The position numbers were made by a program, and so were the translations under genes. Positions 1 to 10,826 of a stretch of 10,826 nt of DNA are shown in pieces. The notes under the pieces were generated by a model. The model was not told the origin of the DNA and searched no databases. It was given only the letters and a program-made list of their open reading frames with translations. The stretch is from a virus (lineage: Duplodnaviria; Heunggongvirae; Uroviricota; Caudoviricetes): the IMG/VR virus record IMGVR_UViG_3300012983_002979; one strand, 5' to 3'. Each line of letters starts with the position of its first letter. Position 1 is the first letter of the stretch.

Positions 1-120
1 GCTAGTTTGTTAGTGGCGTGTCCGTCCGCAGCTGGCAAGCGAATGTAAAGACTGACTAAGCATGTAGTACCGAGGATGTAGGAATTTCGGACGCGGGTTC
101 AACTCCCGCCAGCTCCACCA
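1..120 (+). ncRNA. ssrA: tmRNA (SsrA), 3' terminal 120 nt; gene is truncated by the window start
   Basis: Sequence matches my recollection of the 3' part of E. coli tmRNA, ending in the tRNA-like acceptor arm GGTTCAACTCCCGCCAGCTCCACCA with terminal CCA at 118-120. Recognised from memory, not from a search. Confidence 0.92.
98..120 (+). other. Putative attL core at the ssrA 3' end (island/chromosome junction)
   Basis: An integrase gene lies immediately downstream of the tmRNA 3' end, and a degenerate copy of this segment recurs at 10688-10707. Exact crossover limits cannot be set from one window. Confidence 0.4.
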
Positions 121-153
121 CTTGCTCTTCCGGATACGTCCGGAGAAATCCTG

Positions 154-189
154 AAAGCCCGCATGGCGCAAGCCCTGTGGGCTTTTTTG
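154..189 (+). terminator. Rho-independent terminator downstream of ssrA
   Basis: AAGCCC(155-160)...GGGCTT(178-183) stem around a GC-rich loop, followed by a T-run (181-187). Confidence 0.45.
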
Positions 190-232
190 TGTCTACCGTT
201 GTCCGAGGATATCCCGCTAAATCCAGTGATTA

Positions 233-284
233 TTGGTATACGTTTAGGTATACGATAGGATGTATACCTAAACGCGTATACCAA
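233..284. promoter_or_regulatory. Near-perfect inverted repeat of a 22-bp motif (TTGGTATACGnTTAGGTATAC) just upstream of int; candidate integrase arm-type sites and/or int operator
   Basis: 233-253 TTGGTATACGTTTAGGTATAC; 262-284 is its reverse complement with a 2-nt insertion. A third copy lies at 10613-10634 near the right end. It sits between the ssrA terminator and the int RBS (AAGGAG 291-296). Confidence 0.4.
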
Positions 285-303
285 TTCATTAAGGAGCGGC
301 CAA

Positions 304-1497
304 GTGGCTCGGACAACACGCCCTCTGAGCAACACCGAAGTTCTACGTGCTAAAGCGCTAGATAAGGATCTAACACTGCATGATGGTGATGGGCTTTTTC
401 TGATAGTGAAAACAAACGGTAAAAAACTCTGGCGCTTTCGCTATCAACGACCAACTACAAAAAAAAGAACAATGATAGGGATAGGTGCTTTCCCAGCTAT
501 CTCACTTGCTGATGCTAGAAGGTTAAGGGCGAATTATCTTGCTTTGTTAGCTAATGGCCTAGATCCACAAGTTCAAGCTGAACTTATCGAAGAACAACAA
601 CAGATAGCCATAGACAGTATTTTTTCGACTGTTGCATTCAATTGGTTCCAGCTAAAAAGCAAAAGCGTTACCCCTGATTACGCTAAGGATATATGGCGCT
701 CTCTGGAAAAGGACATATTCCCAGCTATCGGGGAGCTCCCTGTCCAGCAAATCAAAGCCCGGACTCTAGTCGAAGCCCTTGAGCCAATAAAAGCACGTGG
801 GGCTCTTGAAACTGTACGTCGCCTGATACAGCGGATTAACGAGATTATGATTTATGCCGTAAATACTGGTCTGCTCGATGCAAATCCTGCATCAGGCGTC
901 GGGATGGCCTTTGAAAAACCCAAAAAACAAAATATGCGGACGCTGAGACCTGAAGAACTGCCGGAACTAATGCGTTCTTTAGCTATGTCAAACTTATCCG
1001 TTCCCACTCGCTGTCTTATAGAATGGCAACTTCTGACCCTCGTGCGTCCATCAGAGGCATCTGGTGCTCGGTGGGCTGAGCTCGATCTGGATGCAAAGCT
1101 CTGGGTGATTCCAAGCGAGCGGATGAAGGCTAAGCGAGAACATATTGTTCCTTTGTCTCCTCAAGCCTTAGACATTCTTATGGTGATGAAACCAATAAGT
1201 GGGCATCGGACATATATTTTTCCGAGTCGAAACGATCCCCAAAAAGCAATGAATAGCCAAACAGCAAATGCGGCATTAAAACGTATTGGATATGGACAAA
1301 AATTGGTTGCTCATGGTTTGCGTTCTATTGCAAGTACAGCGATGAATGAGGCAGGTTTTAATTCAGATGTTATTGAAACTGCACTTTCTCATGTTGACAA
1401 AGACGAAGTTCGGCGTGCATATAATCGCGCTTTATATCTCGAGCAACGTAAAGAGCTTTTAAATTGGTGGGGATTATTTGTCATGAACTCTAAATAA
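304..1497 (+). CDS. int: Tyrosine site-specific recombinase, P4-type integrase (397 aa, GTG start)
   Basis: ORF 304..1497 with AAGGAG 8 nt upstream. N-terminus (GDGLFLIVKTNGKKLWRFRY) resembles the arm-binding domain of P4-family integrases; C-terminus has HGLRS...RAYNRALYLEQR consistent with the catalytic His/Arg/Tyr region. Location next to the tmRNA 3' end is typical. Confidence 0.9.
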   Translation: MARTTRPLSNTEVLRAKALDKDLTLHDGDGLFLIVKTNGKKLWRFRYQRPTTKKRTMIGIGAFPAISLADARRLRANYLALLANGLDPQVQAELIEEQQQIAIDSIFSTVAFNWFQLKSKSVTPDYAKDIWRSLEKDIFPAIGELPVQQIKARTLVEALEPIKARGALETVRRLIQRINEIMIYAVNTGLLDANPASGVGMAFEKPKKQNMRTLRPEELPELMRSLAMSNLSVPTRCLIEWQLLTLVRPSEASGARWAELDLDAKLWVIPSERMKAKREHIVPLSPQALDILMVMKPISGHRTYIFPSRNDPQKAMNSQTANAALKRIGYGQKLVAHGLRSIASTAMNEAGFNSDVIETALSHVDKDEVRRAYNRALYLEQRKELLNWWGLFVMNSK

Positions 1498-1522
1498 AAG
1501 CTTTTTAATCATCAAAAATTTT

Positions 1523-1546
1523 AAGGCTTTCATTCATGAAAGCCTT
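1523..1546 (-). terminator. Perfect 10-bp-stem hairpin between convergent int and cargo genes; likely terminator for the cargo operon
   Basis: AAGGCTTTCA-ttca-TGAAAGCCTT. On the minus-strand transcript the hairpin is followed by AAAAUUUUU. It overlaps the last codons and stop of cargo gene 2. Confidence 0.45.
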
Positions 1547-2189
1547 CTGTAACAATTATAGGTTCATCTAGCATATATTGTTTTGCAACATATAAAGGAA
1601 AAAAATCTGAGGTATAAAAATTAAAAATATCCCATTGGATATAACACCAAAAAAGAATAACCAAAAGCATCAATGTTATATTTGCCATGGATATATGAAA
1701 ACTCCACAACAAACAAAACAAAAGAGAAAAAATAATCTCAGAGTTAATTATCTTAACTCGAAGATTAGCCTTTTTATCTGATATCTTTTTATCTATCTCC
1801 TTAATAATAAAAAAATCATGGGCATCATTTCGTTTTAACCCCTCATATTTCTCATAAATCCTTAAAATATAGCCATCAAAATCACCAATAAAAACAAGGT
1901 GATTGAAAACTGAAAAGTTTATTTTCTTATGACCATAATTTAAAACCAGAGAAATGATTAGGGCTTGTATTAATTGCAACACTGAAAGCCCTGACAGTAC
2001 TCCCTGTTGAAAATCAAGCACATCCTTAAGGGAAGTTTGATTCATGATATTATATATATCAACATTACCTTTCTGATAAGTCAACATAAAGAAAATTACC
2101 ATGAATAATATCAAAAAACGATGAAGAGGATACTTACAAGTAAGATCCTCAATATATTTCTCTTGGACTTTTTTTGCTAGTTCATCCAT
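1530..2189 (-). CDS. Hypothetical integral membrane protein, ~219 aa, four predicted TM helices (hotspot cargo gene 2)
   Basis: ORF 1530..2222 minus; preferred start is the ATG at 2189-2187 (MDELAKK...), which overlaps the upstream stop as TAATG and has AGGTG 5 nt upstream. Hydrophobic segments FLILFMVIFFMLTY, VLSGLSVLQLIQALIISLVL, IIFSLLFCLLWSF and ITLMLLVILFWCYIQW, with a charged ~60-aa loop between TM2 and TM3. Very AT-rich. Confidence 0.65.
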   Translation of the reverse strand: MDELAKKVQEKYIEDLTCKYPLHRFLILFMVIFFMLTYQKGNVDIYNIMNQTSLKDVLDFQQGVLSGLSVLQLIQALIISLVLNYGHKKINFSVFNHLVFIGDFDGYILRIYEKYEGLKRNDAHDFFIIKEIDKKISDKKANLRVKIINSEIIFSLLFCLLWSFHISMANITLMLLVILFWCYIQWDIFNFYTSDFFPLYVAKQYMLDEPIIVTEGFHE

Positions 2190-3088
2190 TAATACACCTG
2201 TATAAAATATACATCTCCACAATTTGGATCAAAAGCTCCATATTCTATATATGGAGCACCTAAAAACACCATCTCTCTTTCATTCTGAAAATAAGGAAAA
2301 ACCTCTTGAAAATCTTCTTTTGAGGCAAATCTCAGTGTACTTACCGAATTGTTAAAACTGTTTTTCATTTTAGCAGAAAGATATTGCAAATCCATCTCTG
2401 TAACTTTCACTCGATAAATTACAGGGTCACCCAATTTCTTCCTAGTTATAACCCTATGAAAATCATTGGCTTTTGCTCTATTGAACCCAAAAACCTCTGT
2501 GCGATCTGCTGTCAACGATATTTCTAGCGAGCTATCCCCTGAATGATGAGACCTAATAATTGCCAACATTTGATCTATCTCTCTCACAATTGCTCGGTCA
2601 CCATACCGTCGATTAACTGCTGCATCCGGATTTTCCAAAAGTTGCTGATAATCACGAGGTAAAATTTTCTGGCTAGCAATTTGTGCACGTCTAGTCTCTA
2701 CACTTTTACTAATAGTTTCAGCATTTTCAAGACCAGACTGCTGTGCTTCTTTAACTGCATTATTTAGTGCATTTGAAACCCTTTCGACTACTTTTTTTGT
2801 AACATCTTTCTTAGAGAAGAAGTCGATAATATATCCACCTTCTCTAGGGGGCTGTACCAACAGTTCAACATCTTTATAGTAGTCATGATGCATCTTTGCA
2901 TATTTCCAAAGATTACCATGTCTGATGTCAAGATAAGCCCGATCTAAGGCACTTTGCAAATGGCCTAGGCTTTTAGAAAGAGTTCTCAGGGATACTTGGT
3001 GATCAGGTGCAATATCGCCATCAAAATGCAATTCAACAATCGCCACTTCACTTTGCTCCATGTGGAAAAATAAGTCGTTAATGTTCAT
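2189..3088 (-). CDS. Hypothetical protein, 299 aa, no recognisable motif (hotspot cargo gene 1)
   Basis: Long ORF in AT-rich DNA, same orientation as and translationally coupled to the membrane-protein gene. No Walker A, zinc finger or obvious nuclease motif seen by eye. The SD upstream of the ATG at 3088 is weak. Confidence 0.7.
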   Translation of the reverse strand: MNINDLFFHMEQSEVAIVELHFDGDIAPDHQVSLRTLSKSLGHLQSALDRAYLDIRHGNLWKYAKMHHDYYKDVELLVQPPREGGYIIDFFSKKDVTKKVVERVSNALNNAVKEAQQSGLENAETISKSVETRRAQIASQKILPRDYQQLLENPDAAVNRRYGDRAIVREIDQMLAIIRSHHSGDSSLEISLTADRTEVFGFNRAKANDFHRVITRKKLGDPVIYRVKVTEMDLQYLSAKMKNSFNNSVSTLRFASKEDFQEVFPYFQNEREMVFLGAPYIEYGAFDPNCGDVYFIQVY

Positions 3089-3194
3089 ATATTACGTTCA
3101 TATAAAGCACAGATCTACATCTTGAAAATGAATTTTAAAGCTGAATGAGATTTGTGATAATTCTAAAAGACATTTTTATGATACATCGCGCGCA

Positions 3195-3213
3195 GTGCTT
3201 TCCCCGCCTCGCC
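3195..3213. other. cos site: P2/P4-type 19-nt cohesive end (reverse complement of GGCGAGGCGGGGAAAGCAC)
   Basis: 3195-3213 reads GTGCTTTCCCCGCCTCGCC, whose reverse complement matches the P2/P4 cohesive-end sequence as I recall it. Flanked by GC-rich dyad symmetry (3203-3232). Position between int/cargo and psu agrees with P4 organisation. Confidence 0.55.
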
Positions 3214-3314
3214 CGCCCGCTTTGCGGGGCGGTTTTAATGCAGTTGCACTGACACGCTCAGACCGCGCCGGGAATGGTGCGGTCTGCAGAAAATGAGGCA
3301 GGAAAACGCATGCA

Positions 3315-3347
3315 AAGCCATGCACCTTATCGATGCATGGCTTTTTT
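3315..3347 (+). terminator. Rho-independent terminator-like hairpin between cos and the psu stop
   Basis: AAGCCATGCA-ccttatcga-TGCATGGCTT followed by TTTTT on the plus strand. On the minus strand (psu sense) the hairpin is not followed by a U-run, so it would mainly stop rightward transcription. Confidence 0.4.
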
Positions 3348-3377
3348 CAGTAAAAACGGGCGGATTTTCGGGGAATT

Positions 3378-3950
3378 TTACACAGACTGATGTGATGCCA
3401 GTTGCGCACTTTTACGCGAAAAAATCATGTTCTGCGCAGGGGTGAATTTTTCACGGCTGTCATCCACCGAAGCCGCGTCAGGCCTGAATCCGATGGTCGT
3501 TAAAATGTCGCTATCCTGTGCGGAATAATTAATTTTTTCACCCTTCGCAAGCCAGGACAGGAGGGCTTCACGCAGGGCATCTGTGGCACGCTGTATGGCA
3601 CAGTTTCGGGCAATGGCCGTCAGCTCACTGTAGCCCATCAGCTCCGGTGCCAGTGCCGCCGCCAGTGCTGTGCCGTGCTGCTGCATAAAATCATTCAGCC
3701 GGTCGCGGATGCTGATGTGCTGAACGGCTTCATGCGAACGAATATAACGACCGGCGGCCTGATTCACCTGCCATTTTCTGACTTCGATAATATTGCGTAA
3801 TTCGTCCAGGCGACTGACGTTTCTGCCTTCTCCTGACTGAAGCCGCAGATATTCCTGTTCGGCCGCTGCCAGCTCATTTTTGCGTTGCAGCCATGCTGCT
3901 TTGTTATTCTGACAGGTGTCAAAGGCCTGCTGTAAGGCTGTGCTTTCCAT
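3378..3950 (-). CDS. psu: Psu, polarity suppression / capsid decoration protein (190 aa)
   Basis: 190-aa ORF beginning MESTALQQAFDTCQNNKAAW, which I recognise as P4 Psu; length and position (last gene of the psu-delta-sid operon, adjacent to cos) match. Confidence 0.9.
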   Translation of the reverse strand: MESTALQQAFDTCQNNKAAWLQRKNELAAAEQEYLRLQSGEGRNVSRLDELRNIIEVRKWQVNQAAGRYIRSHEAVQHISIRDRLNDFMQQHGTALAAALAPELMGYSELTAIARNCAIQRATDALREALLSWLAKGEKINYSAQDSDILTTIGFRPDAASVDDSREKFTPAQNMIFSRKSAQLASHQSV

Positions 3951-4023
3951 CGTTATCTCTTTCTCATCATGCTGAAGAATAAAAATACGGTGTGCGGCGA
4001 CGGCCGGGGTTAACCGGCAGCCC

Positions 4024-4524
4024 TCATTCCAGACGCAGCGAATATGATTGTGTTTTTAACCGTACTGGCGGCAGTTCCTGTTTTTCATGCAGGCGTTCTG
4101 CCAGTTCGTCCGGTGTGACCGGGCGGACAATGAAGCGGTTGATGGTCTGAAGCGTTTTAAACACCAGACCACAGCCCGGATCCGTGCACACATAAAAACG
4201 TTCGGTGACTTCCTGAGACAGACGCCGCGATGTTCTTGACAGTGCAAGGCCTTTACATCTCCGACAACAATATCCGGTAACAAGCATTCTTTTCGGGCGT
4301 TTCATACTGCCGGAGGCAGAAGTCAGTGAATCGCGGTATCTCTGTTTGCCTGAAATGTATTCCATTCCTGAATCTTTACTGTCAGAGAAAAAGCTTTCAC
4401 TCGCTTCAAATGTCGCAGAGCAATAAATATTCCGGCACTGTGCAATCATTATCTTGGTGCCATCGTCCATGAAATGTGCGCGGCGGGTGTGAGCAACATG
4501 TCCACACGACGGGCAGTAAATCAT
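4024..4524 (-). CDS. delta: Delta, late-gene transcription activator with tandem Ogr-like zinc-finger domains (166 aa)
   Basis: Two Cys-rich Ogr-type halves (CPSCGH...CRNIYC and CCRRCKG...CTDPGC). 166 aa as in P4 Delta. Start overlaps the sid stop as ATGA (4521-4524). Confidence 0.9.
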   Translation of the reverse strand: MIYCPSCGHVAHTRRAHFMDDGTKIMIAQCRNIYCSATFEASESFFSDSKDSGMEYISGKQRYRDSLTSASGSMKRPKRMLVTGYCCRRCKGLALSRTSRRLSQEVTERFYVCTDPGCGLVFKTLQTINRFIVRPVTPDELAERLHEKQELPPVRLKTQSYSLRLE

Positions 4525-5255
4525 GACAGCAGTCCTCTGGCCTTAAGCTCTGCACCCTGCTGGTCTATTTTGTCCTGCCACACCTTGCGCTGTGCCGGTG
4601 TGCCTGCCACCTCATAATCCATGTGCGGGAGTGTTGCCGCTGACAGTCCGGTCAGCCGGAGAACCGGCTCGCCGGTGAGGCTGATTTGCATCTGTTTAAT
4701 TTTCTGTTCCAGCGATGATTTCACCTGCTGCATGACAGCTTTATCGGGTGCGACGTAGCCCTGATGGCCGGTGGTGTTGGCGAGCGGATTTTCCTGTACC
4801 AGGATACTCAGATGCATTGCCCGGACAAGCGCCTCACAGGTTTCATTCAGGGCGTGTTCCAGCTCATGCTCTGCATACAGACTCAGAAGGTGATGATGTG
4901 CCTTCCGGTAGGCGGTGGCCGTGCTGTCACACGCCCCTTTCAGGCGTTCACGTTCGAAATTCAGCACCACGGCCAGATTGTCATATTCCTGTACCAGCTC
5001 CCGGCGTGCCACGCGCTCAATGTGGCGCTGTTTCAGCTCGTCGCTCAGGACACCACCGGCTGCACGAAAGGCCGTGCGCCAGTCGTCAGCGTCGTTTCCG
5101 TCGGCCTGCGCCAGCGCATTTTTTTCCTGCTCTGCCCGTTCAATGGCCGTGACGGTCTCATCCATCAGGCGGGCGTTCTCAAGGTGGGCGGCTCTGGCCT
5201 TTTCCAGTTGTGCCAGTGCGGGTTGCAGATATTCAGGGATGGTGTTGTCAGACAT
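4521..5255 (-). CDS. sid: Sid, external scaffold / capsid size determination protein (244 aa from the ATG at 5255)
   Basis: ORF 4521..5273; the ATG at 5255-5253 has GAGGAG 8 nt upstream and gives 244 aa, the P4 Sid length as I recall it. The track's start at 5273 is a GTG. Coiled-coil-like, Ala/Glu/Leu-rich composition. Confidence 0.85.
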   Translation of the reverse strand: MSDNTIPEYLQPALAQLEKARAAHLENARLMDETVTAIERAEQEKNALAQADGNDADDWRTAFRAAGGVLSDELKQRHIERVARRELVQEYDNLAVVLNFERERLKGACDSTATAYRKAHHHLLSLYAEHELEHALNETCEALVRAMHLSILVQENPLANTTGHQGYVAPDKAVMQQVKSSLEQKIKQMQISLTGEPVLRLTGLSAATLPHMDYEVAGTPAQRKVWQDKIDQQGAELKARGLLS

Positions 5256-5289
5256 TTTCCGGCTCCTCGTCACTTCAGGTTAAGAAAAT

Positions 5290-5345
5290 TGTGACGTACA
5301 CCGGACAACAACACGACGCATTGCAGATGTGCCAGCCCTGACACA
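5290..5345 (-). promoter_or_regulatory. Psid-like late promoter: two TGT-N12-ACA dyads (candidate Delta/Ogr binding sites)
   Basis: TGT(5290-5292)-N12-ACA(5305-5307) and TGT(5328-5330)-N12-ACA(5343-5345), centres ~38 bp apart. Relative to a leftward start near 5281 they would sit near -18 and -55. P2/P4 late promoters are activated through TGT-N12-ACA dyads. Confidence 0.45.
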
Positions 5346-5424
5346 GGAGACTCATCCTCAGACCGGCAAGCCAGGAAAAGGTCGCAGGAAAAACCGGCTT
5401 ACTGTTTGTTTTTTTATATTTTAC

Positions 5425-5528
5425 TGTTCACCTCTGTTCATCATAAGAAAAAAGATAAGTAATACAGTAAGTTAAAGGGTGAACAATCGCAGTAATGACT
5501 GTTCACCGTCTGTTCACCACTGTTCACC
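5425..5528. repeat. Iteron cluster of TGTTCACC octamers; ori-like replication origin
   Basis: TGTTCACC at 5425, 5500, 5511, 5521 (the last three ~10-11 bp apart), a variant TGTTCATC at 5436, and an inverted GGTGAACA at 5478. The same octamer recurs in the crr-like repeats after alpha, ~4.9 kb away. P4 alpha binds TGTTCACC iterons in ori and crr. Confidence 0.5.
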
Positions 5529-5807
5529 CGTTGATGGGCTTTTTGTGCTGTTTACTACTGTTTGTTTTTATTAATTTGCCGGGAATGAATAAGAAAAAAC
5601 GATTTGTATTTCACTATAAAAATTACGAATTGCTTTAAGTGGCTTTAAATGACTTTAAGTGGAGATGAACAAAAAACACACAAGCATTGTAAGGCTGCCG
5701 GAACAAATCCCCCCTGTTGCGTCTGCTGAAAATATTCACAAAATAAAGCGCTACCCGAAGCCGGACGGACTTATCCGGTGCTGTATGGACATTAACGAGG
5801 TAGCCCG

Positions 5808-6074
5808 ATGCAAGCTGTTTTTTCTTCCCCGTCTCCCGCCCCTGTGACGCCACTGATGCCGCTGCCGGACATCACGCAGGAGCGTTTTTTACGTCTGCCG
5901 GAAGTGATGCACCTGTGCGGCCTGTCACGCTCGACCATCTATGAACTCATCCGTAAGGGGGAATTTCCGCCGCAGGTGAGTCTTGGCGGTAAAAATGTGG
6001 CCTGGCTGCACTCTGAAGTCACCGCATGGATGGCCGGCCGCATTGCCGGACGCAAACGGGGGTATGACGCATGA
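5808..6074 (+). CDS. vis: Vis/AlpA-family HTH regulator, excision and late-gene control (88 aa)
   Basis: [50 protein letters not shown] matches the AlpA-type HTH pattern. 88 aa from the ATG at 5808 (GAGG 8 nt upstream); an alternative start at 5856 would give ~72 aa. Confidence 0.75.
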
Positions 6075-6108
6075 TGATGCCCGCTCTGCAAAAAGTCCCT
6101 TTTTCTGG

Positions 6109-6138
6109 CTTGCCTTTTTCCGGCATTTGCGGATATAG
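6109..6138 (+). promoter_or_regulatory. Candidate sigma70 promoter (PLE-like) for the immunity/left operon
   Basis: TTGCCT (6109-6114), 18-bp spacer, TATAGT (6133-6138), ~30 bp upstream of the seqA-like element. Pattern match only. Confidence 0.3.
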
Positions 6139-6329
6139 TTTTTCCGCTGTCGCAAAATCGGCAGCCGGGCGTAGGAACCCGTGTAACTCGAAGGCGACAT
6201 ATGACGCGCCATGCGTCTTTTTTTGTGTCGCAATCAACGCCACAGAGCGCCAGATTATGGTGTGGCGTGTGGTTTGCCGTGCAGGTATGATCCTGTTCGC
6301 AATCGCATGTTATGCCACTGAGTCAATGG

Positions 6330-6400
6330 TAGCTCAGGCGGGGCAGCCTCCGGGCTGGCCGGTATTCTTCGAGGCCGGTATTCCTACCCCCGTCTGGGCT
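6330..6400 (+). ncRNA. cI: CI-like immunity RNA region (seqB-like core); boundaries approximate
   Basis: The central segment 6367-6387 (CTTCGAGGCCGGTATTCCTAC) is complementary to the bipartite GTAGGAA...CTCGAAG(G) motifs at 6171-6194 and 6414-6453, as in P4 seqA/seqB/seqC. RNA ends cannot be set from sequence. Confidence 0.35.
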
Positions 6401-6463
6401 ATCGCCATCGAGCGTAGGAACTCCGGCGATAGCAGTTATTTGCTACTCGAAGGAGACTGCCTT

Positions 6464-6661
6464 ATGGCTACAACCCTTACCCCCTCACACCCTGAATTTG
6501 TCTTTGTGTTTGCGGCTGTCCGTCGCGCAGACCGTCATCCCCGTATCTGCATGCTTCGCACCGTCGCCGGTGATGAACGCAGCGCCCGCCGTTCCCTTGT
6601 CCGTGACTATGTGCTCTCCCTTGCTGCCCGTCTGCCGGTGGTGGAGGTGTCCCGTGCGTAA
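6464..6661 (+). CDS. Small protein (65 aa) in the eta-like position; SD overlapped by the seqC-like element
   Basis: ATG at 6464 preceded by AAGGAG (6450-6455). It is in frame with the 196-aa track ORF, whose upstream part spans the cI region and is unlikely to be coding. Stop overlaps the next gene's start region. Confidence 0.45.
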
Positions 6662-6941
6662 TAAAAAAGCCCCTCAGACCGTCTCAGCGCGTCATGACGC
6701 CCGTGAACACCTCAGCATTGAGGCTTACCATAAGCTCAACCGCGCCAGCGCCGTATCCCAGTTTGTTGGGGGTGATTTGATTCACCGTGAACTCTCCGGC
6801 CTGCATCAGCTCTACATTCCGCATATTTTCAGCTACCTGAATGAAGATATTGATTTTGTGCTGAATGAGCTGAAAGCCAAAGGCCTGTGCCGCGATTTTC
6901 TCGCCCAGCAGAAAGACCGGGGAGACAGGACGCATGTTTGA
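6654..6941 (+). CDS. eps: Epsilon-like protein (helper-prophage derepression), 95 aa from the GTG at 6654
   Basis: Frame of track ORF 6498..6941. GTG at 6654 with GGAGG 6 nt upstream gives 95 aa, the length I recall for P4 epsilon; upstream in-frame ATGs lie inside the preceding small gene. Stop overlaps the orf151 start (ATGTTTGA). Start choice is uncertain. Confidence 0.5.
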
Positions 6942-7389
6942 TTTTCCCCAGCCCGGTGAGATTTACCGTTCTGCCGGTTTTCCCGATGTGGCCGTGGTCG
7001 GCATTCTGGAAGACGGTATTCCGTGGGAAATGCCGTACCGCTGCCCGGAAATTGTCTGGAACCCGTACCGCCGTAAATTCAGTATCCTTGTGCGTATCCT
7101 TGGTGACGGGCGCACCACAGACATCCCGCTGGGGCGTTTTCTGCGGGAATTTACCTGTGACTGTCCTGACCTGTTCAGACGCAGCCCCGTAAACCGGCAT
7201 GCGGTACTGAAAGAAATGGCCGGAGACCCGGAATTACAGAAATGGCGGGAGAAATATCTGGATATTTACCCGCAGGACACTGTTCCGGTCAGCCGGGCGG
7301 CACCGGTGGCGCGGGAATGGCGGGAAATCCCCCGCACGGAGCCTGACCCGGAAATCACACCGGATAACAGTTACCGCAATTATCTGTAA
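6934..7389 (+). CDS. Conserved P4-family protein, orf151-like (151 aa)
   Basis: 151-aa ORF with GGAGACAGGA upstream, coupled to the preceding gene. Length and position between epsilon and alpha match P4 orf151. Confidence 0.8.
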   Translation: MFDFPQPGEIYRSAGFPDVAVVGILEDGIPWEMPYRCPEIVWNPYRRKFSILVRILGDGRTTDIPLGRFLREFTCDCPDLFRRSPVNRHAVLKEMAGDPELQKWREKYLDIYPQDTVPVSRAAPVAREWREIPRTEPDPEITPDNSYRNYL

Positions 7390-7524
7390 TTAAAAAACGA
7401 CACCCGAAAAATTAAATGTGCGTATTCGCGCAGGGATACGCACGTCTTCAGGAGACGCAGATATGCCTTATCAGTTAATGCAACCGGCACGGAATGCAGT
7501 CATCTGTCACAGGGAGGAAAGCAA

Positions 7525-7845
7525 ATGAAAACACCCTTACCGCCCGTCTTACGCGCAGCCCTTTACCGTCGCGCTGTCGCCTGTGCCTGGCTGACCGTGT
7601 GCGAACGTCAGCACCGCTACCCGCATCTCACCCTTGAATCACTGGAGGCGGCCATCGCCGCTGAGCTGGAAGGCTTTTATCTGCGCCAGCACGGTGAGGA
7701 AAAAGGGCGTCAGATAGCCTGTGCCCTGCTGGAAGATTTAATGGAATCCGGCCCCCTGAAGGCCGCGCCGTCGCTGTCCTTTCTCGGGCTGGTTGTGATG
7801 GATGAACTCTGTGCCCGTCACATAAAAGCGCCGGTACTGCACTGA
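7525..7845 (+). CDS. Conserved P4-family hypothetical protein, orf106-like (106 aa)
   Basis: 106-aa ORF with GGGAGG upstream, immediately before alpha. Confidence 0.75.
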
Positions 7846-7859
7846 AGGAGAACAACACC

Positions 7860-10193
7860 ATGAAAATGAACGTAACCGCCACCGTCAGCCATGCGCTCGG
7901 CCACTGGCCGCGTATTCTCCCGGCGCTGGGGATTCAGGTGCTGAAAAACCGTCATCAGCCCTGTCCGGTCTGTGGCGGGAGTGACCGCTTCCGTTTTGAT
8001 GACAGGGAGGGGCGCGGCACCTGGTACTGCAATCAGTGTGGTGCCGGTGACGGCCTGAAACTGGTTGAAAAGGTGTTTGGTGTTTCCCCGTCCGACGCGG
8101 CCGCAAAGGTGGCTGCCGTGACCGGCAGCCTGCCACCGGCTGACCCGGCAGTGACGACCGCCGCCGTTGCTGAAACAGACGCTGCCCGGAAGAGCGCCGC
8201 CGCACTGGCACAAACCCTGATGGCGAAAACCCGTCCCGGAACCGGTAACGCCTACCTGACCCGCAAGGGCTTTCCCGGCCGGGAATGCCGGATGCTGACC
8301 GGCACACTCAGAGCCGGTGGCGTGAGCTGGCGTGCCGGTGACCTTGTGGTGCCACTGTATGACGACAGCGGCGAACTGGTTAACCTTCAGTTAATCAGTG
8401 CTGACGGCCGTAAGCGCACCCTGAAAGGCGGACAGGTCAGGGGCACCTGTCACACCCTTGAAGGACAGAATCAGGCCGGAAAACGTCTGTGGATAGCGGA
8501 GGGATACGCGACCGCACTTACCGTACATCACCTGACCGGTGAAACGGTGATGGTGGCGCTTTCTTCCGTGAACCTCCTTTCTCTGGCCAGCCTTGCCCGG
8601 CAGAAGCATCCGGCCTGTCAGATTGTCCTTGCCGCAGACCGTGACCTCAGCGGTGACGGCCAGAAAAAAGCCGCCGCAGCCGCAGATGCGTGTGAAGGTG
8701 TTGTTGCCCTGCCGCCGGTCTTCGGTGACTGGAATGATGCCTTCACGCAGTACGGCGGGGAGGTCACCCGTAAGGCCATTTACGATGCCATCCGGCCACC
8801 GGCTGAAAGCCCGTTCGACACCATGAGCGAAGCAGAGTTTTCCGCCATGAGTACCAGCGAAAAGGCCATGCGTATCTATGAGCATTACGGCGAGGCGCTC
8901 GCGGTCGATGCCAACGGCCAGCTTCTGTCCCGCTATGAAAATGGTGTCTGGAAGGTGCTGCCGCCACAGGACTTTGCCCGGGATGTGGCCGGGCTGTTTC
9001 AGCGTCTGCGCGCGCCGTTCTCCTCCGGGAAGGTGGCCTCCGTGGTGGACACCCTGAAGCTGATTATTCCGCAGCAGGAAGCCCCCTCCCGCCGCCTGAT
9101 TGGCTTTCGTAACGGTGTGCTCGACACGCAGAACGGCACGTTCCACCCGCACAGTCCGTCACACTGGATGCGCACCCTGTGCGATGTGGATTTCACCCCG
9201 CCGGTGGACGGTGAAACGCTGGAAACCCACGCCCCCGCGTTCTGGCGCTGGCTTGACCGTGCCGCCGGTGGCCGTGCGGAAAAACGCGACGTGATTCTGG
9301 CCGCACTGTTTATGGTGCTGGCAAACCGCTACGACTGGCAGCTCTTTCTGGAGGTGACCGGTCCCGGCGGCAGCGGCAAAAGTATCATGGCCGAAATAGC
9401 CACCCTGCTGGCCGGGGAGGATAACGCCACGTCGGCCACCATCGAGACGCTGGAATCCCCGCGTGAACGTGCCGCGTTAACTGGCTTCTCACTGATACGC
9501 CTGCCGGACCAGGAAAAATGGAGCGGCGACGGTGCCGGACTCAAGGCCATCACCGGCGGCGATGCGGTGTCCGTGGACCCGAAATACCGGGATGCGTACT
9601 CCACGCATATCCCGGCGGTGATTCTGGCCGTGAACAATAACCCGATGCGCTTCACCGACCGCAGCGGCGGCGTGTCACGCCGGCGGGTGATTATTCACTT
9701 CCCGGAACAGATAGCCCCGCAGGAGCGCGACCCGCAGCTTAAGGACAAAATCACCCGCGAGCTGGCGGTCATCGTGCGTCACCTGATGCAGAAATTCAGC
9801 GACCCGATGCTCGCCCGGTCACTGCTTCAGTCCCAGCAGAACTCAGACGAGGCACTGAACATCAAACGGGATGCCGACCCGACGTTTGATTTTATCGGCT
9901 ATCTGGAAACCCTGCCGCAGACCAGCGGCATGTATATGGGGAACGCCAGTATCATCCCGCGTAATTACCGTAAATACCTCTATCACGCCTATCTGGCCTA
10001 CATGGAGGCAAACGGCTACCGGAATGTACTCAGTCTGAAAATGTTCGGGCTGGGGCTGCCGGTGATGCTGAAGGAATACGGACTGAATTACGAGAAGCGC
10101 CATACCAAACAGGGGATACAGACCAACCTGACGCTGAAAGAGGAAAGCTACGGCGACTGGCTGCCAAAATGTGACGACCCTGCAACAACCTGA
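7860..10193 (+). CDS. alpha: Alpha: bifunctional primase-helicase replication protein (777 aa)
   Basis: N-terminal zinc-binding primase motif (CPVCGGSDRFRFDD...WYCNQCG), TOPRIM-like region (LWIAEGYATALT...LAADRD), Walker A (VTGPGGSGKS) in a D5-like helicase domain. 777 aa as in P4 alpha. Confidence 0.95.
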   Translation: MKMNVTATVSHALGHWPRILPALGIQVLKNRHQPCPVCGGSDRFRFDDREGRGTWYCNQCGAGDGLKLVEKVFGVSPSDAAAKVAAVTGSLPPADPAVTTAAVAETDAARKSAAALAQTLMAKTRPGTGNAYLTRKGFPGRECRMLTGTLRAGGVSWRAGDLVVPLYDDSGELVNLQLISADGRKRTLKGGQVRGTCHTLEGQNQAGKRLWIAEGYATALTVHHLTGETVMVALSSVNLLSLASLARQKHPACQIVLAADRDLSGDGQKKAAAAADACEGVVALPPVFGDWNDAFTQYGGEVTRKAIYDAIRPPAESPFDTMSEAEFSAMSTSEKAMRIYEHYGEALAVDANGQLLSRYENGVWKVLPPQDFARDVAGLFQRLRAPFSSGKVASVVDTLKLIIPQQEAPSRRLIGFRNGVLDTQNGTFHPHSPSHWMRTLCDVDFTPPVDGETLETHAPAFWRWLDRAAGGRAEKRDVILAALFMVLANRYDWQLFLEVTGPGGSGKSIMAEIATLLAGEDNATSATIETLESPRERAALTGFSLIRLPDQEKWSGDGAGLKAITGGDAVSVDPKYRDAYSTHIPAVILAVNNNPMRFTDRSGGVSRRRVIIHFPEQIAPQERDPQLKDKITRELAVIVRHLMQKFSDPMLARSLLQSQQNSDEALNIKRDADPTFDFIGYLETLPQTSGMYMGNASIIPRNYRKYLYHAYLAYMEANGYRNVLSLKMFGLGLPVMLKEYGLNYEKRHTKQGIQTNLTLKEESYGDWLPKCDDPATT

Positions 10194-10209
10194 CCATCAT
10201 GACTCATCT

Positions 10210-10234
10210 GACCGGCATCTGCCGGTCTTTTTTT
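10210..10234 (+). terminator. Rho-independent terminator after alpha
   Basis: GACCGGCA-tc-TGCCGGTC followed by TTTTTTT, 17 nt after the alpha stop. Confidence 0.6.
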
Positions 10235-10252
10235 ATCCCTGAATTCCCCGAA

Positions 10253-10554
10253 GGTGAACAATCCACTGTTCACCCTTCACCGTATATTCACCCGTTATCA
10301 CACTGAAATTAAAAGAGAAAAACGAAAGGTGAACAGTGTGAACAATCAAATCAAAAAAAACTTTTTTCTCCCTGTGTGATTTTCAGTACGGGGGATTAAT
10401 CACCGGTATGAGTCACACCGGCAGAATGCCGGAGGTGAAGAATCGAATGTTCACCCTTCACCCATTATTCACCACCTATCCAACTGAAATAAAAGGAGAA
10501 AACAGAAAGGTGAACAGTGTGAACAGTTCTTTCGAAAAAAAATTTTTTTCCTGT
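10253..10554. repeat. crr-like cis replication region: two ~120-bp direct repeats (10253-10375 and 10433-10554) separated by ~57 bp, each with TGTTCACC/GGTGAACA iterons
   Basis: The two units align along their length (GGTGAACAATCCACTGTTCACCCTTCACC...GAAAGGTGAACAGTGTGAACA...CCTGT versus GGTGAAGAATCGAATGTTCACCCTTCACC...GAAAGGTGAACAGTGTGAACA...CCTGT). P4 crr is two 120-bp direct repeats ~60 bp apart carrying the alpha-binding octamer. Confidence 0.6.
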
Positions 10555-10612
10555 ACGATATAGCATCAATCCAAGTAAAAATGCGTTTTCATTTCACATT
10601 AACTTACAGCCA

Positions 10613-10634
10613 TTGGTATACGATTAGGTATACG
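10613..10634. promoter_or_regulatory. Third copy of the 22-bp TTGGTATACGnTTAGGTATACG motif; candidate integrase arm site near the right end
   Basis: TTGGTATACGATTAGGTATACG differs by 1 nt from the 233-254 copy. Confidence 0.35.
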
Positions 10635-10687
10635 CACAAAAAATGAATTAAACAAAATCATTAAAAATCAAAGCAATACAATATTTA

Positions 10688-10707
10688 TTCAAACTCCGCC
10701 AGCCCAC
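10688..10707 (+). other. Degenerate copy of the ssrA 3' end; putative attR or junction with a neighbouring element
   Basis: TTCAAACTCCGCCAGCCCAC versus ssrA TTCAACTCCCGCCAGCTCCAC (99-119). Followed at 10741-10774 by a terminator-like hairpin resembling the one at 154-189. Confidence 0.35.
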
Positions 10708-10740
10708 TTTTTAGTTGTTTGAAGTTCAATGAAGTCTACT

Positions 10741-10774
10741 AAGCCCACACAGCACAAGCTCTGCGGGCTTTTTT
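10741..10774 (+). terminator. Terminator-like hairpin plus T-run, paralogous to the ssrA terminator
   Basis: AAGCCC...GGGCTT then TTTTTT; similar in sequence and layout to 154-189. Confidence 0.35.
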
Positions 10775-10826
10775 ACGTCTATTGTCGTCCAGTGAGAATT
10801 GCTGAGAACTACGAGTTATGGCACCC

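Follow-up and report, generated by a model that had tools for sequence, protein, structure and literature searches.

An ssrA-integrated P4-type phage satellite with an exchanged integration and cargo block and immunity RNA loops unlike those of P4

The window analyzed here, a stretch of 10,826 nucleotides that opens inside ssrA, raises the question of which parts of a satellite that stands at this site, with other genes in the place of gop-beta-cII, belong to phage P4. The first-pass annotation had proposed a complete P4-like satellite at ssrA. With the core components all intact and att repeats at both bounds, this description was borne out, and positions 98-10707 very probably represent an intact phage satellite P4 prophage, integrated site-specifically in the 3′ end of ssrA. 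The host gene of insertion is the Escherichia coli tmRNA gene ssrA at its 3′ end; positions 1-120 match ssrA copies from other E. coli records at 100% identity and are annotated as ssrA in RefSeq genomes, in which the element locus comes after smpB-ssrA. On the right, RefSeq genomes with the element part from the window sequence at 10704-10707, where a second ssrA-associated island begins; this island carries a separate terminator-like copy and, outside the window, a separate integrase. The features are collected in Table 1.

Table 1. Features of the window, with the evidence for each assignment
Feature	Position	Strand	Evidence or remark
ssrA 3′ part (window opens inside gene)	1-120	+	Rfam RF00023, 99.5 bits, model positions 249-374
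attL core region	98-120	+	last ~23 nt of ssrA
attL P′ arm, element-borne	121-303	+	terminator-like site, repeat families, GGTATAC motif
Replacement ssrA terminator hairpin	170-184 and T-run	+	terminator-like site
Putative integrase arm-type sites GGTATAC, attL arm	235, 247 direct; 262, 276 inverted		repeat families
Tyrosine integrase, CP4-57 IntA type, ssrA-targeting, 397 aa	304-1497	+	Pfam and NCBIfam
Terminator-like hairpin after cargo gene 2	1523-1546
Cargo gene 2, 219-aa predicted membrane protein, 4 TM	1530-2189	-	annotated CDS, hydrophobic segments
Cargo gene 1, 299-aa soluble protein	2189-3088	-	helical N-terminal part, C-terminal OB-like beta-barrel
Cargo operon upstream region, AT-rich, 29% GC	3089-3194	-	P4 homology break at ~3187 lies inside
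Promoter-like site of cargo operon	3160 to 3132	-
P4-type backbone, cos through crr	3187-10548		DNA alignment to P4
cos, 19-nt P2/P4 cohesive end GGCGAGGCGGGGAAAGCAC	3195-3213	-	exact match
psu (polarity suppression/capsid decoration), 190 aa	3378-3950	-	187/190 identical to P4 Psu
delta (transactivator of helper late genes), 166 aa	4024-4524	-	164/166 identical to P4 Delta
sid (external scaffold setting small capsid size), 244 aa	4521-5255	-	242/244 identical to P4 Sid
ori	5425-5662	none	P4 ori alignment, motif positions, P4 annotation
ori type I repeats TGTTCACC	5425-5528		5 of 6 exact, sixth with one mismatch
ori type II repeats, three	~5633-5662		exact; P4 ori alignment
vis/orf88 (P4 AlpA-family regulator and excisionase), 88 aa	5808-6074	+	87/88 identical to P4 ORF88
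196-aa ORF overlapping immunity RNAs	6071-6661	+	RefSeq label Icd-like; counterpart of P4 214-aa ORF
seqA leader element, first CI RNA target	6146-6223	+	Rfam isrK RF01394, 69.4 bits; covariation
seqA recognition elements	GTAGGAA 6171-6177; CTCGAAGG 6187-6194	+
CI immunity RNA (C4-type antisense)	6322-6409	+	Rfam C4 RF01695, 74.4 bits, full length
CI RNA recognition loops	TCTTCGAG 6366-6373; TTCCTAC 6381-6387	+	both unlike P4
seqC, second CI RNA target	6414-6453	+	two recognition elements identical to those of seqA
epsilon (helper derepression), 95 aa	6654-6941	+	94/95 identical to P4
orf151	6934-7389	+	146/151 identical to P4
orf106 (cnr, copy-number control)	7525-7845	+	106/106 identical to P4
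alpha (primase-helicase-origin binding protein), 777 aa	7860-10193	+	770/776 identical to P4
crr, two 120-bp direct repeats	10248-10367, 10429-10548	none	repeat family, P4 crr alignment
attR P arm	10549-10706	+	two arm-type sites at 10615 and 10627, then core TTCAAACTCCGCCAGCC
Degenerate ssrA-3′ core repeat TTCAAACTCCGCCAGCC	10690-10706	+	right att core
Left end of second ssrA-associated island	10707-10826	+	outside element

Alignment to the P4 reference (NC_001609/X51522) covered window positions 3214-10548 in a single piece of 7.3 kb at 97.8% DNA identity, which revealed a core that is neither distantly related to P4 nor disrupted. The right edge of crr, at 10548, is also the end of P4 homology, and at the other side cos adjoins psu, with the psu-side flank conserved with P4. 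The eight P4 proteins compared were equal in length to their counterparts in the window and 97-100% identical to them, in agreement with the earlier claim of likeness down to protein lengths. The SatelliteFinder type A core set (int, psu, delta, sid, alpA/vis, epsilon (ash) and alpha) comprises seven genes, and the window has every one of them in intact form, arranged as in P4. The window copy contains no IS element, the eight compared core genes carry no frameshift or premature stop and the cis sites are intact; the proposal that cos, ori, crr, alpha, delta and sid were intact thus stood, with cos exact, ori near-exact, and crr and the proteins intact. No DNA similarity to P4 was found by this alignment in the att arms, the integrase or the two cargo genes. 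One mismatch in an ori type I repeat and a genome ∼1 kb under that of P4 were counted against the view of an intact satellite.

In its integration functions the element departs from phage P4 in the strict sense. With P4 Int the integrase shares only 36% identity, against 59% with IntA of CP4-57, the ssrA island of E. coli K-12, and the site is ssrA, marked by the Rfam tmRNA match at the left end, not the tRNA-Leu gene (leuX) of P4, as had been proposed. Three Pfam domains (Arm-DNA-bind_3, Phage_int_M and Phage_integrase) were identified in the protein, which scored 565 bits against NCBIfam PRK09692 (cutoff 434). A three-domain recombinase beside the ssrA 3′ end with flanking arm-type sites is consistent with membership in the PRK09692/IntA family. 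The GGTATAC motif occurs six times in the window, and all six copies are confined to the two att arms.

In the circular form of the genome, a single contiguous block has very probably been replaced; it starts where crr ends, takes in attP, int and the cargo, and stops 7-8 nt past cos. The new block carries the CP4-57 IntA-type, ssrA-targeting integrase with its own arm sites, together with a low-GC two-gene cassette placed in the known psu-int hotspot that adjoins cos. Modular exchange of the integration and hotspot modules on a P4 backbone, suggested by the first-pass annotation, was demonstrated by comparison with other strains. In E. coli OkiPb01716, an element at tRNA-Leu shares the backbone of window positions 3187-10548 at 98.0-98.6% identity and with identical break points, yet its integrase is of the P4 type and its two cargo genes are different ones. 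Strain MMC-J-0105 contains an ssrA-integrated P4-like element in which the integrase is related but the cargo, of 545 aa, is another.

At least 80% of the window was present in 294 of the 5426 complete E. coli genomes, and the integrase-plus-cargo block was found in 24 of the 5426 at 99.6-100% identity. The 24 isolates bearing the block came from human, poultry, dog, cattle and sediment sources, and their right flanks differ, although many of these identical copies belong to one chicken sampling series. The idea that the cargo is tied to other integrases in E. coli was rejected, as the same integrase 3′ end was present in all 24 occurrences. A variable psu-int hotspot next to cos (PMC9122126), frequent exchange of integrases (PMC8628076) and rapid swapping of defense loci (PMC13586616) have been described in P4-like satellites, and P4-family integrases at ssrA are also on record (PMC10107115). 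The hotspot, the frequent integrase exchange and the cargo are already published (PMC9122126, PMC8628076, PMC13586616, PMC10107115).

The first-pass annotation had also expected other cargo where P4 has gop-beta-cII, and two unrelated genes were found there. The GC content of cargo gene 2 is 29%, and its product and protein 2 of the “HP + 4TMs” system in the cloned fragment pFR87 differ at a single residue; the cos-proximal junction sequence is identical to that of pFR87. Near-identical cargo proteins with the same cos-proximal junction are recorded from Escherichia marmotae E1118. The pFR87 system is no. 30, with 51 loci, in Rousset et al. 2022 (PMC9122126), where it appears in Table S2B among “additional tested systems,” outside the seven validated ones (PMC9122126). 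Searches of the cargo proteins against PADLOC-DB 2.0, Pfam and NCBIfam gave no significant matches, and PHROGs returned only families of unknown function (phrog_31922 for cargo gene 2). Some cargo homologues touched DUF7946 at or just under the Pfam cutoff; a literature search found no mention of this family. None of the six named systems of a 2026 NAR paper fits the description of the cargo. A weak resemblance to hemagglutinin HA2 in a PDB-sequence profile search (coiled-coil-like, E ∼0.01) was rejected as compositional. The gene pair is conserved in Enterobacteria, Xanthomonas, Shewanella and a cyanobacterium, and in Xanthomonas it adjoins AIPR and SIR2 genes.

Inspection of the immunity region revealed that P4-like architecture is combined with altered recognition sequences, and the earlier description of this module as P4-like was upheld for the former only. 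The 196-aa ORF, which corresponds to the kil/eta region of P4, shares 84% identity with its P4 counterpart, and the differences concentrate at the RNA recognition elements. The first target of the CI RNA matches the isrK family, and IsrK has been described as a structural homologue of the P4 SeqA RNA (PMC4825925). The window encodes a C4-family RNA whose two exposed loops are complementary to two targets on the same transcript, as expected for C4/CI antisense immunity. These loops differ from those with which P4 CI (seqB) recognizes P4 seqA and seqC. The differences from P4 in the CI loops and in the seqA and seqC targets are compensatory; within CI they are restricted to the two unpaired loops, and they are mirrored in both targets. 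Cognate CI/target duplexes gave calculated energies of -33 to -37.5 kcal/mol, whereas crosses between P4 and the window gave -20.7 to -24.5 kcal/mol, a weakening of 12-15 kcal/mol.

When eight alleles were compared over 15 intermolecular pairs, all 120 of 120 cells were paired, and double changes were present in 9 of the 15 pairs. Each of the eight alleles has a different loop combination, with at least three variants of one loop and at least five of the other, and CI, seqA and seqC show perfect three-way covariation. Compensatory departures from P4 in the CI loops and in both targets lead to the prediction that the window element is probably heteroimmune to P4. No survey of CI/seqA/seqC allele diversity in P4-like satellites was found in the searchable literature. 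To judge from the covarying alleles, the RNA immunity code of these satellites has diversified.

The near-identity to P4 suggests a life cycle in which pairing of the CI RNA with seqA and seqC would silence the replication operon. Expression of sid-delta-psu would be turned on by a P2-like helper, with Ogr, Delta and Epsilon as reciprocal activators; Alpha would use ori and crr to replicate the genome, Int and Vis would excise the element, and the helper terminase would cut cos and package the ∼10.6-kb genome into Sid-sized capsids. Mobilization by a P2-like helper, which the first-pass annotation took to be probable, is plausible given the intact parts and the near-identical copies in diverse strains, and the sequence itself holds nothing that speaks against it. 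A search for words of 9 nt or longer common to the att arms and the PLL region, as a candidate Vis-binding motif, found none. Vis is of the P4 type, whereas neither the integrase nor the arms are, and no such word links the arms to PLL; excision control could therefore be impaired.

The different lineages of Vis and integrase would also fit a domesticated or cryptic remnant like CP4-57, intact in appearance but no longer able to be excised or packaged and inherited only vertically. Other copies that are interrupted by IS elements, one of them truncated by IS1 after the integrase, and the weight of the single chicken series among the identical copies are consistent with decay of this kind. It is nonetheless quite unlikely for the window copy, given its uninterrupted core genes and intact cis sites and given the near-identical copies with different right flanks in diverse hosts, E. 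marmotae included. Neutral drift of the immunity region in an element still co-immune with P4 is unlikely as well. The conserved CI stem and overall architecture, together with the -21 to -24 kcal/mol that the cross duplexes retain, would be compatible with drift; the confinement of the changes to unpaired recognition loops, their mirroring in both targets and the eight covarying loop combinations in eight alleles argue for a change of specificity instead.

That the two cargo genes serve some end other than defense, such as addiction of the toxin-antitoxin kind, a factor directed at the helper P2 or a role in the host membrane, is a less likely but serious possibility: pFR87 stands outside the validated systems, and therefore no defense is reported for the cargo, no known defense domain was detected by PADLOC or Pfam, and a fold search yielded only a generic OB-like barrel. 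Against this, the pair sits in a hotspot from which more than one-third of the cloned systems protected, and in a 2026 study defense was obtained from 6 of 8 randomly picked unknown loci. Its conservation from Enterobacteria to a cyanobacterium and its position beside AIPR and SIR2 genes in Xanthomonas likewise favor defense. Abortive-infection systems typically pair a membrane partner with a soluble protein, as is seen here. The role most likely for the cargo is accessory defense, as an anti-phage or abortive-infection module in which the membrane protein would be the effector.

P4-like elements are common in E. coli and combine a near-invariant backbone for helper exploitation and replication with swapped integrases and a swapped, cos-adjacent defense hotspot; the window illustrates this cleanly, with break points fixed exactly at cos plus 7-8 nt and at the end of crr. 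There is an even chance that the element belongs to a large combinatorial set of heteroimmune P4 satellites and that its “HP + 4TM” cassette may be an uncharacterized abortive-infection module. If so, immunity type, integration module and cargo would all be reshuffled on a ∼98% identical backbone, and near-identical satellites could share a cell without mutual repression or competition for att sites. The cassette, conserved from enterobacteria to cyanobacteria, might then act on a target phage outside the published panel.

Among known systems, satellite P4 has the same gene order as the window element (∼10.6 kb) and a genome ∼1 kb longer. The element belongs exactly to the class of P4-like satellites with a variable psu-int hotspot (PMC9122126, PMC8628076, PMC13586616), and cloned examples of that hotspot have a matching break point a few bases beyond cos. 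CP4-57 of E. coli K-12 shares its attB, the ssrA 3′ end, has a degenerate ssrA-3′ repeat at its far end, as here, and encodes an integrase of the same NCBIfam family (59% identity). Unlike the window element, it lacks P4 psu, delta, sid, epsilon and alpha in the K-12 annotation, and its arm-type repeats are of the GGCCCA type as opposed to GGTATAC. Excision of CP4-57 leaves a defective ssrA (PMC10107115), and by analogy the tmRNA gene is predicted to be defective once the window element has been excised. The immunity of the window element finds its counterpart elsewhere. In retronphage phiR73 and in the c4 system of P1/P7, heteroimmunity arises through compensatory changes in short antisense loops and two targets, the same principle as that seen in CI, seqA and seqC of the window.

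Alignment of the window to the phage records by megablast revealed that positions 3214-10548 match P4 (NC_001609, X51522) in one piece at 97.8% identity, from P4 coordinate 11624 down to 4291, which corresponds to the stretch between the cos end and the beginning of crr. No other record in the phage collection covered more than small pieces of the window. The eight backbone products that were compared are equal in length to their P4 counterparts and nearly identical to them, which bears out the earlier claim of a P4-type core. At ori, the three type II repeats all match P4 exactly, and so do five of the six type I repeats; the remaining type I repeat (5435-5442) carries a single mismatch (GATGAACA versus GGTGAACA in P4). 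Both 120-bp crr repeats are present and unchanged. The element upstream of the antisense immunity RNA (CI RNA) was assigned to the isrK family, IsrK having been described as a structural homologue of the P4 SeqA RNA (PMC4825925). With all cis sites in place and protein lengths equal to those of P4, the description of a complete P4-like satellite held.

Features of the satellite and its insertion site (window coordinates), with P4 comparisons
Feature	Position	Strand	Detail
ssrA (tmRNA gene), 3' third	1-120		Rfam RF00023, 99.5 bits
Integrase	304-1497		Three domains of arm-binding tyrosine recombinases
Cargo 219-aa protein	1530-2189	minus	~4 hydrophobic helices
Cargo 299-aa protein	2189-3088	minus	Soluble
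cos, 19-nt cohesive end	3195-3213	minus	GGCGAGGCGGGGAAAGCAC, exact
Immunity region	6146-6453		
seqA-like element	6146-6223		Rfam isrK family, 69.4 bits
seqA (CI target)	6171-6194		
CI immunity RNA	6322-6409		Rfam C4 family, 74.4 bits
CI loops	6366-6387		
seqC (CI target)	6414-6453		
Element a, seqA/seqC targets			GTAGGAA; P4, GTGAGAA
Element a, CI RNA loop			TTCCTAC; P4, TTCTCAC
Element b, seqA/seqC targets			CTCGAAGG; P4, TTCACAGG
Element b, CI RNA loop			TCTTCGAG; P4, CCTGTGAA
Degenerate ssrA 3'-end copy, right end	10690-10706		TTCAAACTCCGCCAGCC; ssrA 3' end, TTCAACTCCCGCCAGCTCC
alpha			770/776 residues identical to P4
sid			242/244 residues identical to P4
delta			164/166 residues identical to P4
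psu			187/190 residues identical to P4
epsilon			94/95 residues identical to P4
vis/orf88			87/88 residues identical to P4
orf106			106/106 residues identical to P4
orf151			146/151 residues identical to P4

The window is E. coli chromosome immediately 3' of smpB, and the gene order smpB, ssrA, integrase was found in RefSeq genomes with the same sequence. The degenerate ssrA copy at the right end closely resembles the attR of CP4-57, the cryptic ssrA island of E. coli K-12. Because this copy is present, genomes that share the satellite begin to diverge from the window at 10704-10707 and a second island starts beyond, the limits of 98-10707 set in the first-pass annotation are right. The window contains six copies of the motif GGTATAC, of which four are located between ssrA and int and two just inside the right end, a distribution as would be expected of arm-type sites of the integrase. 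The satellite is a real and complete feature with correct limits, and its original interpretation is sound.

The second ssrA-associated island begins directly to the right of the satellite (window 10707-10826; 22829-34828 of comparison locus L003). This island carries a separate copy of an ssrA-terminator-like hairpin (10741-10790) and a separate IntA-like integrase, after which come recombinase and ParB genes; the junction sequence is also present in phage phi467. This arrangement points to tandem occupation of ssrA by the two elements. As with CP4-57, ssrA owes its functional 3' end and its terminator to the satellite. In contrast to the attL copy at 98-120, the attR copy (10690-10712) is degenerate; judging from positions 10700-10710, ssrA would read CGCCAGC-CCAC... 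after excision and would be without the U357 position, a ΔU357-like state; loss of U357 inactivates tmRNA in K-12, the CP4-57 case (PMC10107115).

On one side, similarity to P4 ends 7-8 nt past the cos end (~3187); on the other, it ends with the final base of crr (10548). In the circular form the replaced part is one contiguous block comprising the P arm, core, P' arm, int and cargo. The integrase scored 565 bits against NCBIfam PRK09692 (cutoff, 434) and is only 36% identical to P4 Int, compared with 59% to IntA of CP4-57. The ssrA location, the distant integrase and the two-gene cargo confirmed that integration site and hotspot content differ from those of P4.

In E. coli OkiPb01716, a P4-like element adjoins tRNA-Leu, the site of P4 itself; its backbone is 98.0% identical to the window at 3187-7848 and 98.6% identical at 7844-10548, and its integrase (419 aa) and two cargo genes showed no similarity to their window counterparts. 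In E. coli MMC-J-0105, a P4-like element at ssrA has a related integrase (~87% identical in DNA), with one 545-aa gene as its cargo. These two elements demonstrate the exchange of integration and hotspot modules that had previously been suggested. Of the 5426 complete E. coli genomes searched, 294 contained 80% or more of the window in one place and only 24 contained the integrase-plus-cargo block; the cargo was joined to the same integrase in all of these 24. In one further genome, IS1 had cut the element down to the integrase and a fragment of the cargo. IS1, IS3, IS5 or, between orf106 and alpha, IS21/ISEc12 had inserted into other copies of the satellite; the interrupted copies and the IS1-reduced remnant show decay in some lineages.

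From vis to epsilon, the differences from P4 are unevenly distributed, clustering at 6145-6191, 6266-6319, 6366-6385 and 6416-6463, and they bear on immunity specificity, a point absent from the first-pass annotation. P4 immunity involves pairing of CI with its targets seqA and seqC, leading to transcription termination (PMC4825925). Relative to P4, the loop and target changes in the two short recognition stretches, elements a and b, are complementary to each other in both targets. Predicted duplex energies were -33.0 and -35.4 kcal/mol for the cognate window pairs, -36.2 and -37.5 kcal/mol for those of P4, and -20.7 to -24.5 kcal/mol for the four window/P4 cross combinations. Since P4 immunity rests on this pairing, which is changed compensatorily here, the satellite is predicted to be heteroimmune to P4. 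Retronphage phiR73 provides a precedent for heteroimmunity of this type.

The comparison was extended to eight alleles, comprising the window, P4 and six further E. coli loci (L013-L018), and all eight differed in their element a/b combinations. Standard pairs were found in all 120 cells of the CI-seqA pairing, with two-sided changes in 9 of 15 pairs; when the pairing was slid by 1-3 columns, at most 51% of cells were paired. The same elements recur in seqC of every allele, offset by one alignment column in two rows. Eight loop combinations in eight alleles, with perfect three-way covariation, suggest that P4-like elements have a diversified RNA immunity code. The window immunity allele was found at ≥99% identity in 142 records, more than carry the window integrase, and these include the tRNA-Leu element. 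Strains AH02 and GN05056 have P4-type seqA, CI and seqC with an Icd-like ORF directly after a gene annotated 'P2 family phage major capsid protein' (L017, 1-699; L018, 1-702), which implies a different kind of element with the same RNA immunity. Approximately 890 places on E. coli plasmids, annotated 'ash family protein', match the CI (C4) part at ~83% identity and presumably represent P1-like plasmid prophages that carry c4 RNA.

With regard to putative mobilisability, every known trans and cis function is intact, which counts in its favor, as does the spread of near-identical copies across isolates from human, poultry, dog, cattle and marine sediment, which have differing right-hand neighbors and include another Escherichia species. 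Excision would require the P4-type Vis to cooperate with a foreign integrase and foreign arms. The satellite genome is 10.6 kb, compared with 11.6 kb for P4.

The GC content is 37% for the 299-aa cargo gene and 29% for the 219-aa gene, compared with 55% for the backbone. Because the cargo region (1530-3194) is 29-37% GC and the integrase 44%, the two differ in compositional history, though they are always together in E. coli. A promoter-like site of the cargo adjoins cos, and a terminator-like hairpin follows the second gene. Neither Pfam nor PADLOC gave a match to the cargo proteins, NCBIfam gave none that was significant, and in PHROGs they matched only families without assigned function. 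A search of 5.8 billion proteins yielded 95 homologues of the 299-aa protein at E ≤ 1e-3, from Salmonella, Serratia, Rahnella, Vibrio, Shewanella, Xanthomonas, Pseudomonas, a Desulfobulbus and a cyanobacterium. In all three distant contigs examined, the homologue lies directly 5' of a 184-222-aa gene; these partners gave no Pfam hits, and their products can be aligned to the transmembrane protein of the window, with a common N-terminal MDELAK..Y motif. The pair lies downstream of glmS in Shewanella, adjoins AIPR and SIR2 genes in Xanthomonas and is also a unit in the cyanobacterium Phormidium (L005, 6001-7415; L006, 6001-7541; L008, 6001-7541). The conservation of the unit in these three genera means that its movement as a cassette extends well outside P4 satellites. 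An AlphaFold model based on 77 sequences was confident (pLDDT 90.2, pTM 0.83), and the best guess is that the cargo is a putative sensor-plus-membrane-effector accessory module.

The psu-int hotspot adjoining cos was defined by Rousset et al. 2022 (PMC9122126), who described over 300 gene arrangements across 5,251 loci. Their Table S1 lists WP_024238668 and WP_024238669 as "hypothetical + hypothetical", and the cassette is system no. 30, found in 51 loci with the remark "4 TM in protein 2" (PMC9122126). It was cloned from Escherichia marmotae E1118 as pFR87, "HP + 4TMs", which appears in Table S2B among "additional tested systems", outside the seven validated ones (PMC9122126). The pFR87 fragment and the window share one cos junction. 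Their versions of protein 1 appear identical on visual inspection, and there is a single-residue difference in protein 2. A 2026 NAR study reported that elements sharing identical core genes rapidly exchange their defense loci (PMC13586616), and P4-family integrases at ssrA have been tabulated (PMC10107115). Hotspot, cargo cassette, defense-locus swapping and ssrA integrases have thus all been described previously, and the satellite is an ordinary representative of a well-studied family and has already been catalogued.
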